Shown piece by piece: positions 14,815 to 49,336 of a stretch of 64,000 bases of DNA. Source of the DNA: Candidatus Staskawiczbacteria bacterium RIFOXYB1_FULL_38_37. GTDB taxonomy: Bacteria; Patescibacteriota; Minisyncoccia; Minisyncoccales; Staskawiczbacteraceae. The stretch's first letter is position 1, and each line of letters starts with the position of its first letter. The position numbers and the translations under genes were made by a program. The DNA lies in assembly GCA_001822075.1 (NCBI GenBank), contig MHPK01000003.1, positions 9,437 through 73,436 of the forward strand. The letters are read 5' to 3'. The notes below the pieces were generated by a model. That model worked only from the letters and a program-made list of their open reading frames with translations. It had not been told where the DNA came from and did no database searches.

Positions 14815-16269
14815 ATGGCGTATAAAGCAACAATTGGATTAGAAATACACGCAGAGCTAAAAACAAATTCAAAAATGTTTTGCTCTTGTAAAAATGACCC
14901 GGATGAAAAACGGCCTAATTTTAATATCTGCCCGGTTTGTACTGCCCAGCCCGGAACCTTGCCTGTGGCCAACGAAGAAGCAATAAAAAAAGTTATAAAA
15001 ACCGGACTGGCTTTAAATTGCAAAATAGCCGAAGATTCAAAATTTGACCGCAAAAATTATTTTTATCCGGATCTTCCAAAAGGCTACCAGATTTCGCAAT
15101 ACGACCAGCCGTTATGCGAGGGAGGTTATTTAGAAGTTGAGGGACGGAAAATAAGAATTACAAGAATACACTTAGAAGAAGATACAGGGAGTTTGGTTCA
15201 CCCGGAAGGAGCAGATTATTCTTTGGTTAATTTAAATAGGGCTGGAATTCCTTTAATGGAACTGGTTACAGAACCCGACATAACATTTGGCAGAGAGGCA
15301 AGGTTATTTGCCCAAGAGTTCCAGTTTATTTTAAGGTACTTGGGAGTTTCTTCAGCTGATATGGAAAAGGGCCAAATGAGGGTGGAGGTTAATATAAGCA
15401 TAAGCAAAAATGATAAACTTGGAACGAAGGTTGAAATTAAGAATTTGAACTCTTTTAAAGTTGTTGAAAAAGCAGTTGATTTTGAAATTCAAAGGCAGAA
15501 AGAGCTTTTAGAAAATAAAGAAAAAATTATTCAGGAAACAAGAGGCTGGCATGATAAAAAAGAAATTACTTTTTCCCAGCGGGAAAAAGAAGGAGCGCAC
15601 GACTACAGATATTTTCCAGAGCCTGATTTACCGCCGATGCATTTTGACAAAGAATATATAAATGAGATAAAATTAAGTATGATAGAATTACCCGAACAAA
15701 GAAGAGAGAGATTCAAAAAAGAGTATGGTTTAGACGACCCCTCTGTTGAATTTTTTGTTGCAAACAAGGATTTGGGAGAATATTATGAAAAAGTTGTCTC
15801 TGAATTTGAAGAGTGGACTGAAGAGCAGGAAAATGATAAGGCTCACAAAAAGGCCGCCAAGCTTGTGGCAAATTATTTAATAACAGACATATTGGGGCTT
15901 TTGTCGGGCGCGCAATTTGTTGAGGCTGATTTTAAGATTACAGCAGAAAATTTTGCTGAATTTATAAAAATGATTTACAGGGATGAAGTTTCAAGCAAGA
16001 CAGCCAAAATGGTTTTAGCTGAAATGTTTAATACAGGGGGAGACCCCTCATCAATTGTTGACGAAAACAACTGGAGGCAGATGTCTGACGATTCAGAGCT
16101 GGAAAAAATTATAAAAGAAGTTATTGAAAAAAATCCAAACGCAGTTGAGGATTATAAGTCAGGCAAACAAAATTCTTTGCAATTTTTAGCAGGACAGGTT
16201 ATGAAAGAAACAAGGGGTACGGCAAAACCAGATAAAGTGCAAAAATTACTTTTAGAATTGCTGAATTAA
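14815..16269 (+). CDS. gatB: Asp/Glu-tRNA amidotransferase subunit B
   Basis: GLEIHAEL, CPVCTAQPGTLPV, C-terminal YqeY-like tail. Confidence 0.95.
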   Translation: MAYKATIGLEIHAELKTNSKMFCSCKNDPDEKRPNFNICPVCTAQPGTLPVANEEAIKKVIKTGLALNCKIAEDSKFDRKNYFYPDLPKGYQISQYDQPLCEGGYLEVEGRKIRITRIHLEEDTGSLVHPEGADYSLVNLNRAGIPLMELVTEPDITFGREARLFAQEFQFILRYLGVSSADMEKGQMRVEVNISISKNDKLGTKVEIKNLNSFKVVEKAVDFEIQRQKELLENKEKIIQETRGWHDKKEITFSQREKEGAHDYRYFPEPDLPPMHFDKEYINEIKLSMIELPEQRRERFKKEYGLDDPSVEFFVANKDLGEYYEKVVSEFEEWTEEQENDKAHKKAAKLVANYLITDILGLLSGAQFVEADFKITAENFAEFIKMIYRDEVSSKTAKMVLAEMFNTGGDPSSIVDENNWRQMSDDSELEKIIKEVIEKNPNAVEDYKSGKQNSLQFLAGQVMKETRGTAKPDKVQKLLLELLN

Positions 16270-16313: not shown

Positions 16314-16355
16314 AGCCCCGAATTTGCATCGTTGCAACGATGCAAATTCGGGGCT
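16314..16355. terminator. 42-nt perfect palindrome, likely bidirectional terminator
   Basis: AGCCCCGAATTTGCATCGT-TGCA-ACGATGCAAATTCGGGGCT between convergent gatB and 16372..16767; A-run upstream, T-rich downstream. Confidence 0.7.
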
Positions 16356-16371: not shown

Positions 16372-16767
16372 TCAGAACGGCCGGGGAATGGGGTCGCCGA
16401 AAGTCGGGCTGTACGCGTTGTTCGCCCTGTCCAAAATATGCAAACTATCAATGACGAACGCGTCCGGAAGATTGGTTACAGCTCCCGAACCTTTTGGGCA
16501 TATTTTCCGCAAAAAATGGCTAAAAGCCGGGTCAATCTCGCCATAACGTATCCTGACTTCGCCGTTTTCAAGAACGGCGACTGTAATGCGATTGCTATGC
16601 GACCATCGGCATAACGTTTTCCGGCTGGCATGGACAAACCCTTCCTCACCGTGCATGGTTTCGACCCATTGCAAGCCAGTGATGTTTACGAGCCCGAAGG
16701 AACGTAAATGGCGCTTAAGCTCGTGGAAAATGTGCCCTTCTTTTTTGTGGGCGAGGGTGTTGCGCAT
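16372..16767 (-). CDS. hypothetical protein (131 aa) in a GC-richer patch
   Basis: Longest ORF of the patch; strong SD (AAGGAG, 7-nt spacer) before ATG 16767; no motif recognised. Confidence 0.6.
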   Translation of the reverse strand: MRNTLAHKKEGHIFHELKRHLRSFGLVNITGLQWVETMHGEEGFVHASRKTLCRWSHSNRITVAVLENGEVRIRYGEIDPAFSHFLRKICPKGSGAVTNLPDAFVIDSLHILDRANNAYSPTFGDPIPRPF

Positions 16768-21430: not shown

Positions 21431-23245
21431 TTACTTTTTTTCTTGGATTTCTTTTTTAATTTTTTCAATAAATTTTTCTAAAGGCATTTGACCATCGTCT
21501 CCTTTTCCGCGGGCTCTTACAGAAACAGCAGAAGCTGAAATTTCTTTATCGCCCAAAATCAAAAGATAGGGGATTTTTTGCATTTCAGCTTCCCTGATTT
21601 TTTTACCCAAAGTTTCATTTTCATCTCTTAACTCAACGCGCAAATTATTATCTTTTAATTTTTTAATAATTTCTTTGGCATAGTCTGCGTGCTTTTCAGA
21701 AATAGGTATTACAGAAACCTGAATGGGGGACAGCCACAAAGGAAACGCCCCTTCGTATTTTTCAATCAAAAATGCCATTGTTCTTTCAACAGCCCCTATT
21801 GAAGAGCGGTGTATCACGATTGCTTCTTTTTCTTTGCCGTCTGAATCTGTGTAAACTAAATTAAATCTTTTTGGACCCACAAAATCATATTGCACAGTAA
21901 AGGCTGTATCTTCTTTGCCAGAAAAATTTTTCATTTGGATATCTATTTTTGGCCCGTAAAAAGCAGCCTCATTTTCTGCCTCAAAAAACGGGGCGTTCTT
22001 TTCTTTCAAAACTTTTCTTAAGATATTTTCTGCAAAATCCCATGCCCTATCATCTTTGTAATATTTTTTTGAATCTCTTTTATCTCCCAAAGACAATCTG
22101 TATCTGTAATCAACTCCGGATTTTAATTCAAATATGCCGGCCATATCTTCTATTAATTTAAGAGCCAAGTTTATTTCTTTTTCTGCCTGGTCTTTTTGGC
22201 AAATTATGTGAGAGTCGGCAAGGCAAAAACATCTTACCCTTGCCAGGCCGGTCAGTTCTCCAGATTTTTCATACCTGTATTGTTTAGCTAATTCTGCAAT
22301 TCTAAATGGCAGTTCTCTGTAAGACCTTGGTTTTGCCAAATAAAGCTGGTAGTGGTGGGGGCAGGTCATAGGCCTTAAAATAAGTTCTTCTTCGTCAACT
22401 TTCATCACAGGATACATGGTGTCTTTATAATAAGGATAGTGGCCGGATTTTTTAAATAAATCAACTTTTGCCAAATCCGGAGTGCATACATGTTTGTATC
22501 CTCTTTTTATTTCTTCGTCAACAATCAATCTTTCCAGCTCTCTTCTTATGGCAGTGCCCTTTTCTGTATATAGGGGTAATCCTTTTCCAACAATATCAGA
22601 AAATATGAACAGGTCTAGTTTTTTTCCTAAAACTCTATGGTCGCGTTTTTCTGCCTCCTCCTGCATTTTTACATAATCTGAAAGCTCTTTTTCAGTTGTA
22701 AAAGCCAAACCATAAATGCGGGTTAACATTTTATTTTTTTCAGAGCTCTTCCAGTAAGCCCCTGCAATTCTTGTGAGCTTAAAAGCTTTTGGGTTTATTT
22801 CTGAAGTGTTTTTTACATGAGGCCCTTTGCACAAATCTGTAAAAGCTGGTGGGATGTCCGACATCCCACCACTGGTGGGATGTCGGACATCCTTTAAAAC
22901 TATCGTGGTTATGTAAACAGAAACATTTTTGCCGGGCAGTTCTTTTATCAGTTCTAATTTGTATGGCTGGTCTTTAAATAATTTTTTGGCCGCCAGTTTT
23001 GTGATATCTTTTTTGATAAATTTTTGGTCTTGTAAAATCAGCTCTTTCATGCGAGCTTCAACTTTTTTGATAAACTCGTCTTGTCCGCCTTCGCTAATGG
23101 CTTGGGCGGGTAATAAAAAGTCGTAGTAAAATCCGTTTTCAATTGCCGGGCCCATTCCTAATTTTGCTTTTGGGTGCAATTCAAGCACAGCTTGCGCCAT
23201 TATATGCGATAGGGAATGACGAATGTTTTCAATATTTTCTGCCAT
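21431..23245 (-). CDS. thrS: threonyl-tRNA synthetase (no TGS domain)
   Basis: Editing-domain start HSLSHIMAQAV, DLCKGPH, class II core and anticodon-binding domain. Confidence 0.95.
   Translation of the reverse strand: MAENIENIRHSLSHIMAQAVLELHPKAKLGMGPAIENGFYYDFLLPAQAISEGGQDEFIKKVEARMKELILQDQKFIKKDITKLAAKKLFKDQPYKLELIKELPGKNVSVYITTIVLKDVRHPTSGGMSDIPPAFTDLCKGPHVKNTSEINPKAFKLTRIAGAYWKSSEKNKMLTRIYGLAFTTEKELSDYVKMQEEAEKRDHRVLGKKLDLFIFSDIVGKGLPLYTEKGTAIRRELERLIVDEEIKRGYKHVCTPDLAKVDLFKKSGHYPYYKDTMYPVMKVDEEELILRPMTCPHHYQLYLAKPRSYRELPFRIAELAKQYRYEKSGELTGLARVRCFCLADSHIICQKDQAEKEINLALKLIEDMAGIFELKSGVDYRYRLSLGDKRDSKKYYKDDRAWDFAENILRKVLKEKNAPFFEAENEAAFYGPKIDIQMKNFSGKEDTAFTVQYDFVGPKRFNLVYTDSDGKEKEAIVIHRSSIGAVERTMAFLIEKYEGAFPLWLSPIQVSVIPISEKHADYAKEIIKKLKDNNLRVELRDENETLGKKIREAEMQKIPYLLILGDKEISASAVSVRARGKGDDGQMPLEKFIEKIKKEIQEKK
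22848..22892. repeat. GC-rich palindrome GGTGGGATGTCCGACATCCCACC plus a partial second copy, in frame in thrS
   Basis: Read directly; translates on the minus strand as HPTSGGMSDIPPA, inserted before the conserved FTDLCKGPH. Confidence 0.85.
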
Positions 23246-26984: not shown

Positions 26985-27033
26985 ATTTTTGTCTAATATA
27001 CCATTTTACCTTTTGTAATGCTAAAATCAAGTA

Positions 27034-27669
27034 ATGATTTATCCGAATTTTAGTGAAGAAAAAAAGTTGTGGAAAAAGGGATATAAGTTGGTTGCAGGAT
27101 TAGATGAAGCCGGCAGAGGCCCTTTGGCTGGGCCAGTTGTGGCTGCGGCCGTAATTTTTAATTTTAAATTTCCAAATAAATTTTTAATTAAACAATTTCC
27201 AATGATAAAAGATTCCAAAAAAATGACAGTTAAACAACGGGAAGCTACGTATGAATTTTTGACTAATCACCCGGATATAAAGTGGGGAGTGGGCATAGTT
27301 TCAGAAAAAGTTATAGATAAAATAAATATTTTAGAAGCCACAAAACTGGCAATGAAAAAAGCAGTCGGTGGGGTGTCGGACACCCCACCGGACTTTTTGC
27401 TTTTAGACGGGAATTTTAAATTAGAGAATATTAATTTGCCGCAAAAAAGCATTATAAAAGGGGATTCAAAAGTTTTTTCAATTTCTGCCGCTTCCATTAT
27501 AGCAAAGGTGACGCGGGACAGAATAATGCAGAAATACCATAAAAAATATCCTGAATATAATTTTTTAAAACATAAGGGATATGGCACAAAAGCTCATTTT
27601 GCCAGCTTGCAAAAATTCGGGCCGTGTAAAATACACAGAAAAAGTTTTTACCCCGTTAAATTTTGTTGA
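27034..27669 (+). CDS. rnhB: ribonuclease HII
   Basis: GLDEAGRGPLAGPVV and LLLDGN motifs. Confidence 0.9.
   Translation: MIYPNFSEEKKLWKKGYKLVAGLDEAGRGPLAGPVVAAAVIFNFKFPNKFLIKQFPMIKDSKKMTVKQREATYEFLTNHPDIKWGVGIVSEKVIDKINILEATKLAMKKAVGGVSDTPPDFLLLDGNFKLENINLPQKSIIKGDSKVFSISAASIIAKVTRDRIMQKYHKKYPEYNFLKHKGYGTKAHFASLQKFGPCKIHRKSFYPVKFC
27366..27391. repeat. 26-nt GC-rich palindrome CGGTGGGGTGTCGGACACCCCACCGG, in frame in rnhB
   Basis: 12-bp arms; codon-checked translation GGVSDTPP; identical copy at 33897-33922. Confidence 0.9.
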
Positions 27670-33549: not shown

Positions 33550-34095
33550 ATGCTTACAATAAGATTAACAAGAAAAGGTAAAAAAAATCAGCCGTTTTTC
33601 AGGGTGGTTTTAATAGACAAAAGGAGGTCTGCCAAAGGCGGAAGGGCTGTTGAGGCGCTTGGAAATGTTGACCCTCTTACAAAAAGAAAAAATTTAAAAA
33701 AAGACAGAATTTTATACTGGATTTCAAAGGGAGCGCAAACTTCAGACACAGTGCATAATTTGTTGATTTCTGAAAAAATTATAGAAGGCAAGAAAATTCA
33801 TGTTTCAAAATTAAGCAAGAAGAAACAGGCAGACCTGGCTGCGCAGGCAGGTCTGGCTGCGCAGGCAGGAATAGCCAAAGAAAAATCCGCAAAAAGCGGT
33901 GGGGTGTCGGACACCCCACCGGCTAAAGAGTCAAAAACAGCAGAAGCAAAAGCCCTAGAAACCGGAGCTCCGGTTGAAATACTGCCAGCCCCAGTTGAAC
34001 CAGCCGCGGCTGAAACTCCAGCAGAACCCGAAAAACCGGCAGAACCCGCCTCCGCTGAAAGCTCCGGCGAGGCAAAGCAGCCCCCAACAGCATAA
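33550..34095 (+). CDS. rpsP: ribosomal protein S16 with ~100-aa repeat-built C-terminal extension
   Basis: MLTIRLTRKGKKNQPFFRVV start; Ala/Glu/Pro-rich tail. Confidence 0.9.
   Translation: MLTIRLTRKGKKNQPFFRVVLIDKRRSAKGGRAVEALGNVDPLTKRKNLKKDRILYWISKGAQTSDTVHNLLISEKIIEGKKIHVSKLSKKKQADLAAQAGLAAQAGIAKEKSAKSGGVSDTPPAKESKTAEAKALETGAPVEILPAPVEPAAAETPAEPEKPAEPASAESSGEAKQPPTA
33827..33871 (+). repeat. 18-nt direct repeat x2.5 (CAGGCAGRYCTGGCTGCG) in the rpsP tail
   Basis: Codon-checked: encodes QADLAAQAGLAAQAG; CAGACCTG and CAGGTCTG are reverse complements. Confidence 0.85.
33897..33922. repeat. second copy of the 26-nt palindrome, in frame in rpsP
   Basis: Identical to 27366-27391; translates GGVSDTPP. 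Confidence 0.9.
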
Positions 34096-48412: not shown

Positions 48413-48578
48413 GTTAAAGGGGTCAGGTACCTTTGATTGTCATTCTAATCGTGATACACTTAATTAATGCCAAGGGTTTTACGAGTATAAGGGTTAAGGG
48501 GAGGGTTAAGGGGTCAGGTACCTTTGATTGTCATTCTAATCGTGATACACTTAATTAATGCCAAGGGTTTTACGAGTA
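48413..48578 (+). repeat. tandem duplication (75 + 74 nt, ~92-nt period) of the RayT left end
   Basis: GTTAA(A)GGGGTCAGGTACCTTTGATTGTCATTCTAATCGTGATACACTTAATTAATGCCAAGGGTTTTACGAGTA occurs twice. Copy 2 carries the real ATG (48558). In copy 1 the same ATG is followed by a stop after 7 codons. Confidence 0.9.
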
Positions 48579-49245
48579 GATATTGGAAATCAAATTTACC
48601 ATGTCCTTAATCGGGCAAATGCCCGTTTGCCGATTTTTTTTAAAGAACAAGATTATCAGTTGTTTGAGAACATTCTTGAAAATGGCCGTGAAAAGTTTGA
48701 TATGCGTATTTTAGCTTACTGCTTGATGCCGAATCATTTTCACTTAGTCTTGCAACCTAAGGAAGATGGCGGTTTGCAAAGGTTTATGCAGTGGGCGACC
48801 TTAACACACACGCAACGTTGGCACAGCCAAAACAAAACCATAGGCTCGGGGCACCTGTATCAGGGCAGATACAAATCGTTTATCATACAAGAAGACAACC
48901 ACTTATTGGCAGTCATCAGATATGTGGAGCGCAACCCGCTCCGAGTTAATATTGTCAAACAAGCAGAAGATTGGCGCTTTTCAAGTTTGTACCGCAGGAT
49001 GTTTCCAAAAGAATTTAAAATGCATAAAAGAATTTTGTCAGACCTGCCGATTGATATGCCCAAAGATTATCTCGCTTTTGTTAACCAACCGCAAACAAAC
49101 GAAGAAATCGCGGCTATACGTTATTCGGTTAACCGCGGCAGACCTTTTGGCAATTGTGAGTGGGCTGATAAAATTATTAAGGCGTTCGGGCTTGAATCAA
49201 CCGTACGGAGCAGGGGCAGGCAAATCAAAGGTACCTGACCCCTTT
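48416..49245 (+). mobile_element. RayT gene bracketed by 23-bp inverted repeats
   Basis: AAAGGGGTCAGGTACCTTTGATT (48416-48438, and one A shorter at ~48508-48529) versus its exact reverse complement AATCAAAGGTACCTGACCCCTTT (49223-49245); each holds the AGGTACCT palindrome. Confidence 0.65.
48558..49238 (+). CDS. REP-associated / IS200-like Y1 (HUH) tyrosine transposase (RayT-like)
   Basis: YHVLNRANARLPIF, HUH motif LMPNHFHLVL, catalytic-Tyr region IRYVERNPL. Confidence 0.85.
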   Translation: MPRVLRVDIGNQIYHVLNRANARLPIFFKEQDYQLFENILENGREKFDMRILAYCLMPNHFHLVLQPKEDGGLQRFMQWATLTHTQRWHSQNKTIGSGHLYQGRYKSFIIQEDNHLLAVIRYVERNPLRVNIVKQAEDWRFSSLYRRMFPKEFKMHKRILSDLPIDMPKDYLAFVNQPQTNEEIAAIRYSVNRGRPFGNCEWADKIIKAFGLESTVRSRGRQIKGT

Positions 49246-49336
49246 GTTTGACCCCTTTGTTCGACCCCCCCTTTGTTCGACCCCTTTGTTCCTTTGTTCT
49301 TTGTTCCCTTCTTTGTTCCCTTTGTTCCTTTGTTCA
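49238..49336 (+). repeat. degenerate pyrimidine-rich short tandem repeats (GACCCCTTTGTT decaying to CCTTTGTT)
   Basis: Read directly; directly upstream of the 49340 promoter. Confidence 0.8.

Follow-up and report, generated by a model that had tools for sequence, protein, structure and literature searches.

Why does the same short GC-rich palindrome lie in frame in unrelated housekeeping genes of Candidatus Staskawiczbacteria bacterium RIFOXYB1_FULL_38_37? The whole stretch of 64,000 nucleotides that was analysed here (the window, on contig MHPK01000003.1) carries four copies of such a palindrome, one in rnhB (RNase HII), one in rpsP (ribosomal protein S16) and two in thrS. The palindrome is probably a miniature hairpin element resembling the repetitive extragenic palindromes (REPs), belonging to a system of the type formed by REPs and their REP-associated tyrosine transposases (RAYTs), in Staskawiczbacteria-like Patescibacteria. 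The link to a transposase is visible only from related contigs.

Palindrome copies in the window

The original prediction, made from the letters of the window alone, had pointed to an identical string in rnhB and rpsP, read as GGVSDTPP in both genes, and had described it as a 26-nt palindrome with 12-bp arms. The 26-nt string CGGTGGGGTGTCGGACACCCCACCGG was indeed found exactly at 27366-27391 (rnhB) and 33897-33922 (rpsP), with identity ending directly at both borders. The arms and the single centre were also right, but not the length: the perfect palindrome measures 25 nt (12 + 1 + 12), at 27366-27390 and 33897-33921, and the 26th base, a G common to the rnhB and rpsP copies, falls outside it. 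When one bulge is allowed, the pairing lengthens the stem to AGTCGG...CCGGACT in rnhB and to AGCGG...CCGGCT in rpsP. The copies and their host genes are as follows.

21431-23245, - strand: host gene thrS (Pfam tRNA_SAD, tRNA-synt_2b, HGTP_anticodon)
22847-22871, in thrS (a - strand gene): palindrome, A/T variant, TGGTGGGATGTC C GACATCCCACCA, as a whole TGGTGGGATGTCCGACATCCCACCA, reading GGMSDIPP
22874-22893, in thrS: truncated second copy, inverted relative to the first, with G as its centre on the + strand, in another frame, reading KDVRHPT
27034-27669, + strand: host gene rnhB, RNase HII (Pfam RNase_HII, 117.9 bits)
27366-27390, in rnhB: palindrome, G/C variant, CGGTGGGGTGTC G GACACCCCACCG, reading GGVSDTPP on the + strand
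33550-34095, + strand: host gene rpsP, S16 (Pfam Ribosomal_S16, 57.6 bits), whose C-terminal tail, long and of low complexity, holds the palindrome
33897-33921, in the C-terminal tail of rpsP: palindrome identical to the rnhB copy, reading GGVSDTPP

The two thrS copies are 3 bases apart, and the coding strand of this gene reads ...KDVRHPTS-GGMSDIPP..., that is, two frames of the element in one protein. Together they make up an inverted doublet with 20-nt arms (22852-22892), similar to a REPIN, which is located at a turn ahead of the conserved FTDLCKGPH. The peptides encoded across the inserts are AVGGVSDTPPDF in RnhB, SGGVSDTPPAK in S16 and HPTSGGMSDIPPAF in ThrS.

In the shuffled window 0.00 chance matches were expected, versus the four copies found in 64 kb, and no GTCSGAC-centred palindromes with arms of at least 7 nt exist in the window beyond these four. 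The arms are 75% GC, compared to 37.6% for the window as a whole. Folded as single-stranded DNA, the rnhB hairpin reached -14.6 kcal/mol (z -5.7), and the thrS doublet formed a 19-bp hairpin of -24.3 kcal/mol (z -10.2).

Distribution, reading frames and host sites

The query GGTGGGRTGTCSGACAYCCCACC was scanned against one genome per species, for 185,579 species. Only nine exact copies were detected, eight of them in a single metagenome-assembled genome (MAG), Candidatus Staskawiczbacteria LacPavin_0818_WC45_MAG_38_24 (JAPLZC01), which carries one more copy with a single mismatch and has no nucleotide similarity to the window besides the palindrome. A scan of metagenomes yielded 18 further contigs, nearly all of them of 32-38% GC, and viral contigs scanned with a relaxed pattern gave no match and no sign of phage carriage. 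The matches in GC-rich genomes, L003 (Acidimicrobiia) and L008 (67% GC), were set aside, as they are at about the level that chance would give, by our own estimate, for a GC-rich 23-mer over roughly 1e12 bases. The best named homologues of the RnhB and S16 proteins of the window belong to Staskawiczbacteria, Parcubacteria or Patescibacteria, and the palindrome itself is almost confined to Staskawiczbacteria-like Patescibacteria. In related contigs, the following sites are occupied within genes.

UvrC, site 1: in frame, loop of the GIY-YIG beta-hairpin
UvrC, site 2: in frame, linker ahead of the RNase H-like domain
DprA: in frame, linker ahead of the winged helix
RecG: in frame, inside the open reading frame (ORF)
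TsaD: in frame, inside the ORF
ComF-like phosphoribosyltransferase: in frame, inside the ORF
RnhB: in frame, at the same site as in the window

Non-coding copies were also detected, including one that precedes a 23S rRNA gene and one that follows a 16S rRNA gene, each outside the rRNA gene itself. About 11 of the 16 independent sites, and all four copies of the window, are inside ORFs with Pfam matches. The proposal of a tiny dispersed palindromic repeat tolerated in frame in unrelated housekeeping genes was upheld by its recurrence, in unrelated genes as well as non-coding DNA of several related genomes, and, as shown below, by its absence from most orthologues and by its position in RnhB.

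When 32 distinct copies were aligned, the core was GGTGGGRTGTC-S-GACAYCCCACC, mostly lengthened to 31-33 nt as AAGTC...GACTT. The outer part is mostly AAGTC-core-GACTT or AAGTT-core-AACTT; its outermost pair covaries, and the flanks of the 32 copies are symmetric and pair with each other. A common reading frame, also part of the original prediction, holds for rnhB and rpsP but not in general, as three frames are used in proportions of 9:1:2 over the independent coding sites.

Frame A, GG[VM]SD[TI]PP: 9 independent coding sites
Frame B, W[GD]V[GR]HPT: 1 independent coding site
Frame C, VGC[PR]T[PS]H: 2 independent coding sites

Frame A, present at 9 of the 12 sites (binomial p = 0.004), encodes a Gly/Ser/Asp/Pro loop. 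All variants of the 33-nt consensus are free of stop codons in the six frames, a property shared by only some 6% of random palindromes of 33 nt with the GC content of the window.

At the centre of the palindrome only G or C is ever seen, and orthologous sites of different genomes can carry opposite bases there, as in rnhB (position 27378 of the window versus L012), at uvrC site 1 (L004, L025 and L019), in tsaD (L006 and L016) and in the internal copies of the transposase gene described below. A transversion between G and C is otherwise uncommon as a point change, and a perfect palindrome that was inverted or inserted anew would show exactly this switch.

The presence or absence of the insert was followed in the orthologues of the host proteins, and the expected polymorphism was found. 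Among the 120 closest homologues of RnhB (61-100% identity), GGVSDTPP is present only in P0001-P0004 and P0014 and is absent from the other 115, the canonical sequence being KKSFEKLNPDFLLLDGN. Outside the site, the homologue nearest to the RnhB of the window is P0005 (92% identity), in which a different insert of 18 residues is found, and the ten nearest RnhB neighbours of P0014 all lack the palindrome. The rnhB gene of L020, with 83% nucleotide identity to that of the window, likewise has the canonical sequence and no palindrome. In L012 the 23-nt core is the same as in the window, though the flanks are only 72% identical, and the junctions differ (VRKL-GGVSDTPP-DC versus KKAV-GGVSDTPP-DF in the window). 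Neighbours without the palindrome and unlike junctions therefore imply that this site gained the palindrome twice or more, or lost it repeatedly.

A similar pattern was found for the other hosts. The motif is missing from 118 of 120 S16 homologues; only P0241 (97% identity) shares it, and P0246 has a decayed form, SNGVSDTPP. In the ThrS of L028, a contig of 693 kb, TNGN stands in place of 23 residues of the window protein, which is therefore longer by 19 aa. The two sites of UvrC are filled independently, both being occupied in L004, only the second in L010 and only the first in L019. The tail of S16 holds in addition an 18-nt tandem duplication (33826-33869, AAQAGL-AAQAGI) that is not present in P0241, and besides the palindrome insert this tail appears to evolve fast through small duplications.

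These data bear on three simpler accounts of the repeats. GGVSDTPP is shared by several proteins and might be a functional peptide motif; however, three frames of this DNA are in use and it also occurs outside coding sequence, and the host proteins are unrelated, with most of their orthologues lacking the insert. Assembly or sequencing artefacts would not explain that the same orthologous sites carry the element in independent assemblies (JGI, ENA, Logan and NCBI), and independent template-switch mutations would not yield the same 23-33 nt at a dozen loci. We find this group of explanations scarcely credible.

Regarding the position within the host proteins, the peptide of RnhB had been placed in the linker ahead of the DFLLLDG strand, in agreement with the AlphaFold 2 model (pLDDT 84.5), where approximately residues 112-119 cover the end of a helix (99-113) and then coil (114-120) ahead of a strand (121-125). 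The element is present in rnhB as predicted, but it is not a clean insertion. The net difference is +9 nt with respect to the canonical sequence and +1 aa with respect to the RNase HII of Thermotoga maritima (3O3G), in which ALENLS-VKPSF aligns with AVGGVSDTPPDF. Therefore, the element takes the place of a segment about as long as itself and is not a plain addition.

The same RnhB linker holds other elements in further relatives. An in-frame palindrome, ATTCCCGC-TTTC-GCGGGAAT, which gives SRFRGND, is located there in L035 (445-1113; RnhB homologues P0054/P0090, with L034), and in L034 (3001-3717) the helix-to-strand linker contains an element of roughly 110 nt with nested inverted repeats. These observations point to the linker as a permissive insertion hot spot and to several families of palindromic elements in Patescibacteria genomes.

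The transposase gene of relatives and its hairpins

In L020, L012 and L027, an ORF of 244 aa is located between dnaE and rnhB; L027 encodes an RnhB that is 87% identical to that of the window and has the palindrome. The corresponding slot of the window is empty.

26985-27033: dnaE-rnhB intergenic slot, 49 nt and empty in the window; in L020, L012 and L027, occupied by the transposase gene and its three palindrome copies

In these three loci, in the MAG (L007/L002) and in L030, one palindrome lies 20-75 nt upstream of the ORF, another is in frame at residues 63-77, and a third is 1-30 nt after the stop codon. Since the palindrome alone served to retrieve these loci, the presence of this gene nearby so often cannot be due to chance. 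In two close relatives (L009, 572-1108; L026, 3674-4213) the slot is occupied by a PaaX_M-like gene of 178-179 aa, with no transposase there, and it would appear to turn over fast.

The 244-aa ORF was matched by Pfam Y1_Tnp (PF01797, IS200-like) with 28.8-29.9 bits, for a gathering score of 23, and its best and sole match in NCBIfam was REP_Tyr_transpos (NF047646). All 42 sequences compared share histidines H98 and H100 of the HUH motif and Y157, which stands in a YxHxN context. The best fold match in the PDB for an AlphaFold model of the protein (pLDDT 78), as detected with Foldseek, was 4ER8_A (E 1.5e-5, TMt 0.64), a structure of the RAYT of E. coli bound to a REP hairpin, followed by the TnpA proteins of ISDra2 and IS608; a profile search against PDB sequences gave a marginal match to ISDra2 only (E 0.02). 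The internal palindrome copy is predicted to encode a disordered loop of the transposase (pLDDT below 50). The family comprises at least 1,187 clusters, the source labels shown being all of Patescibacteria type, and in nearly all of the 120 members that were aligned a peptide translated from a palindrome is found at the same position. Synteny is kept between L030 and L031, between L032 and L033, and among L020, L012 and L027, with the gene found once per locus by tblastn; L010 carries two transposase paralogues within 10 kb. The internal hairpins were located, among others, at these positions.

L020, 2082-2112
L012, 2302-2332
L027, 3527-3557
L030, 10204-10226
L010, 1085-1103
L031, 7099-7121

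In eight of the ten transposase loci examined, the upstream, internal and downstream hairpins match each other within the locus and differ between lineages. Six types were distinguished, with stems such as GGTGGGGT, GGCAAC and ATTGCTAC.

L020, L012, L027: GGTGGGGTGTC-S-GACACCCCACC
L030: GGTGGGACGTC-C-GACRTCCCACC
L010a: AGTCGGGCAACGTC-S-GACGTTGCCCGACT
L031: ATTGCTACGTC-N-GACGTAGCAAT
L032: ATTGGGACGT-CAT-ACGTCCCAAT
L033: TTGCAGACGT-ATG-ACGTCTGCAA

Changes in the stem with complementarity kept are what would be expected of a hairpin that a cognate enzyme recognises, and they indicate that hairpins and transposases have probably co-evolved. Within the palindrome family of the window, core positions 7 and 17 covary as well (Fisher p = 0.005), a result to be taken as supporting evidence only, given the phylogenetic non-independence of the copies. 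The co-variation of hairpin and gene suggests, indirectly, that the transposase may bind and cleave its cognate hairpin as single-stranded DNA. In the mechanism that we propose, a Y1/HUH transposase of the RAYT kind would recognise the hairpin in single-stranded DNA and would nick and rejoin at it, so that copies could be made, inverted and replaced around the chromosome; IS200/IS605 and the TnpA_REP of E. coli serve as models for an enzyme that acts on a folded single strand. The transposase would thus be the agent of spread. Selection would then retain those events that preserve the frame in permissive loops and linkers, favouring the hydrophilic Gly/Ser/Asp/Pro frame GG[VM]SD[TI]PP. Because these genomes have very little non-coding DNA, the surviving copies would be those in frame in permissive protein loops. 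The inserts are presumably translated, and the copies of the window are probably passengers rather than functional sites.

A different origin for the same palindrome would be a duplex-DNA site for a dimeric host protein involved in chromosome organisation, segregation or regulation (compare parS, matS and NBS, also present inside genes), under selection at each site, in which case the link to the transposase would be incidental or the Y1 protein would be a domesticated binder. The perfect dyad symmetry about a single central base fits such a site, and so does the independent variation of the half-sites at the R position: 7 of the 32 distinct copies are hybrids, with A on one arm and C on the other, that mispair as a hairpin. 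Also in its favour are the 23-nt core shared by the rnhB genes of the window and L012 within flanks of only 72% identity, and the syntenic positions of the transposase genes (L030/L031, L032/L033), which look vertical and domesticated, not selfish. However, selection at each site fits poorly with the patchy presence among the closest orthologues and with the differing junctions at the 'same' site, and a stem that is wholly changed across transposase lineages while its complementarity is kept is the signature of a hairpin. In addition, the arms of 12-16 bp exceed usual half-sites, and the closest solved fold is that of an enzyme with a bound REP hairpin. We regard the duplex site, which is the sole serious rival and could coexist with a domesticated transposase, as distinctly unlikely.

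The hairpin could also act in the mRNA, tuning translation speed, mRNA decay or RNase processing of the housekeeping transcripts under selection. Its fold is very stable, several of the hybrid copies have G..T on the sense strand and could form a G-U pair, and many REPs act as RNA, as argued by Di Nocera et al. 2013 (PMC3733652). Against such a role, the element occurs in either orientation and in three frames, an A-C mismatch is seen on the sense strand of at least one copy (L006 tsaD), there is no T-tract, and no Rfam family matches at any palindrome copy. Moreover, most orthologues lack the insert, which is hence unneeded for the expression of these genes, and the transposase gene has copies on either side, an arrangement known from the REP-transposase units called REPtrons. 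We therefore consider an RNA-level function very unlikely.

Several observations weigh against the REP-like element with a RAYT-type transposase that we favour. The NCBIfam match reached only 33 and 27.6 bits for a cut-off of 80, and the transposase is, on this score far below the cut-off, to be placed as a distant RAYT clade. No asymmetric tag or GTAG/CGTC guide at the hairpin foot was detected in a position count of the 32 distinct copies, oriented by the central base; in known systems the guide tetranucleotide is needed for cleavage. The hybrid copies break one base pair on one strand, and a duplex-DNA binding site would fit them equally well. The net length differences with respect to empty orthologues are +9, +12, +18 and +57 nt, none of which equals the length of the element, so insertion does not appear to be a clean paste of a fixed unit; for the same misfit, a fixed unit of 33 nt (11 codons) was discarded as the source of frame keeping. 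In L010 and L025, the palindrome is a few kb away from transposases whose own hairpins are of another type. The copy number is modest, with about nine copies in the one MAG where they can be counted, versus more than 100 typical of classical REP hosts. Finally, no cognate transposase of this clade was found in the 64-kb window, the copies of which could be relics, any activity in this genome being putative.

Hairpin and transposase might instead constitute a domesticated, co-evolving pair, with the internal copy, which keeps its position over more than 1,000 protein clusters while its sequence changes along with the flanking copies, as a 'master' or autoregulatory site. The copies in uvrC, recG, dprA, the comF-like gene and rnhB would then not be neutral passengers but places for the enzyme to nick or bind single-stranded DNA when the chromosome replicates or the cell is transformed. 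This is unlikely in our judgement; if true, ultra-small bacteria would have a genome-maintenance or regulatory network of their own, with an enzyme by which short hairpins that encode peptides are written into proteins.

The window does encode another Y1 protein, in an ORF at 48558-49238 (+ strand; Y1_Tnp, 61.5 bits in Pfam). It was discarded as the cognate transposase, since it is only distantly paralogous, is bounded by terminal inverted repeats of its own (22 nt) and lacks a GTCSGAC hairpin. Within the region 48417-49245, these terminal repeats are perfect over 22-23 nt (AAGGGGTCAGGTACCTTTGATT), the left one sitting in an exact 71-nt direct duplication (48417-48487, 48508-48578) and the right one overlapping the 3' end of the ORF. 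They include GGGGTCAG, which fits the GGGGWSAS motif of the tyrosine transposases associated with terminal inverted repeats ('TIRYT', PMC3733652), and no further copies of them are present in the window. Directly downstream of this TIRYT-like gene, short degenerate tandem repeats (CCTTTGTTC / GACCCCTTTGTTC) occupy 49241-49335.

Relation to known systems, and a further palindrome in the window

Few bacterial repeats are as abundant as those of REP/RAYT systems, which have been described chiefly in Proteobacteria and in intergenic DNA; their spread and function are debated. REPs or REPINs together with a RAYT (TnpA_REP) transposase form the REPtrons of E. coli and Pseudomonas (Nunvar 2010, PMC2817692; Bertels & Rainey 2011, PMC3116915; Messing 2012, PMC3479197). 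The palindromes analysed here are likewise short GC-rich hairpins dispersed in the chromosome, with an inverted doublet in thrS that is comparable to a REPIN. As in REPtrons, a Y1/HUH gene is bracketed by its own hairpin and the hairpin type follows the transposase lineage; as in REP/RAYT systems, the transposase is found at syntenic positions, in the pairs and the trio of genomes named above, which may reflect vertical inheritance. The best structural match of the transposase model, 4ER8, is itself an E. coli RAYT. In contrast, REPs are extragenic, whereas most copies here are in frame within genes. REP hairpins also carry a conserved unpaired GTAG or CGTC tetranucleotide at their 5' foot (PMC3733652; PMC6006769), whereas the hairpin described here is symmetric and perfect, without a GTAG tag or an asymmetric foot. 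Further differences are the cognate hairpin located inside the transposase ORF in nearly the whole family, a protein that is longer than RAYTs (about 240 aa) and below the NCBIfam RAYT cut-off, and a low copy number per genome.

Intragenic REPs with GTAG or CGTC tags have been described in Opitutus terrae, Thauera and Rickettsia conorii (RPE-4/RPE-6), often in uvrA, uvrB, dnaE and aminoacyl-tRNA synthetase genes (Di Nocera et al. 2013; PMC3733652). Those elements resemble ours in being palindromes of REP size that are found in frame, singly or as dimers, in genes for replication or repair and for tRNA synthetases (here uvrC, recG, dprA, rnhB and thrS), sometimes with two sites occupied in one gene. 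They differ in that they are the minority of an extragenic family, whereas coding sites here make up about 11 of the 16 independent ones, and in the GTAG or CGTC tag, which is absent here. The CGTC families moreover have no associated transposase, unlike the family described here.

The original prediction had compared the repeat to the Rickettsia palindromic elements (RPEs). The likeness in in-frame residence stands, as both are palindromes that reside at surface-exposed positions of housekeeping proteins encoded by a small AT-rich genome. The closest comparison is nevertheless a different one, since REP/RAYT systems, including the intragenic REPs (PMC3733652), fit better than the long RPE-1. 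The element of 25-33 nt is set apart from RPE-1 by its length and by its host, Patescibacteria, a different phylum, and not by sequence comparison. RPE-1 is about 100-150 nt long, and to our knowledge it has no dedicated transposase.

The IS200/IS605 family (IS608, ISDra2) belongs to the same transposase superfamily and recognises subterminal hairpins in single-stranded DNA. In that family, however, the gene and both of its unlike ends move as a multi-copy unit, whereas here only the hairpin is dispersed.

In a literature search of limited coverage, no link of RAYT/REP or tyrosine transposases to Patescibacteria or the candidate phyla radiation (CPR) was found, nor did the literature searched describe an internal REP inside a RAYT gene. 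The kind of system is already known from REPtrons and intragenic REPs, and what sets this one apart is the untagged symmetric hairpin, the coding majority, the distant clade of longer RAYTs, the host phylum and the co-evolving internal hairpin.

Patescibacteria have almost no intergenic space, and the hairpins are found mostly inside essential genes, as extra protein loops. They constitute a natural experiment on the protein positions that tolerate an insert of 8-11 residues, and the six hairpin types, each with its own transposase lineage, provide a series for the recognition rules of Y1/HUH enzymes. They also call for caution, as short GC-rich palindromic inserts in CPR proteins are, on the reading favoured here, scars of mobile elements and not lineage-specific functional motifs.

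A further perfect palindrome, of 42 nt (AGCCCCGAATTTGCATCGTTG|CAACGATGCAAATTCGGGGCT), is present in the window at 16314-16355, between the convergent ORFs 14815-16269 (+ strand) and 16372-16767 (- strand). Its sequence is unrelated to the GTCSGAC-type element, it coincides with a change of sign in the GC skew, and it looks like a bidirectional terminator.

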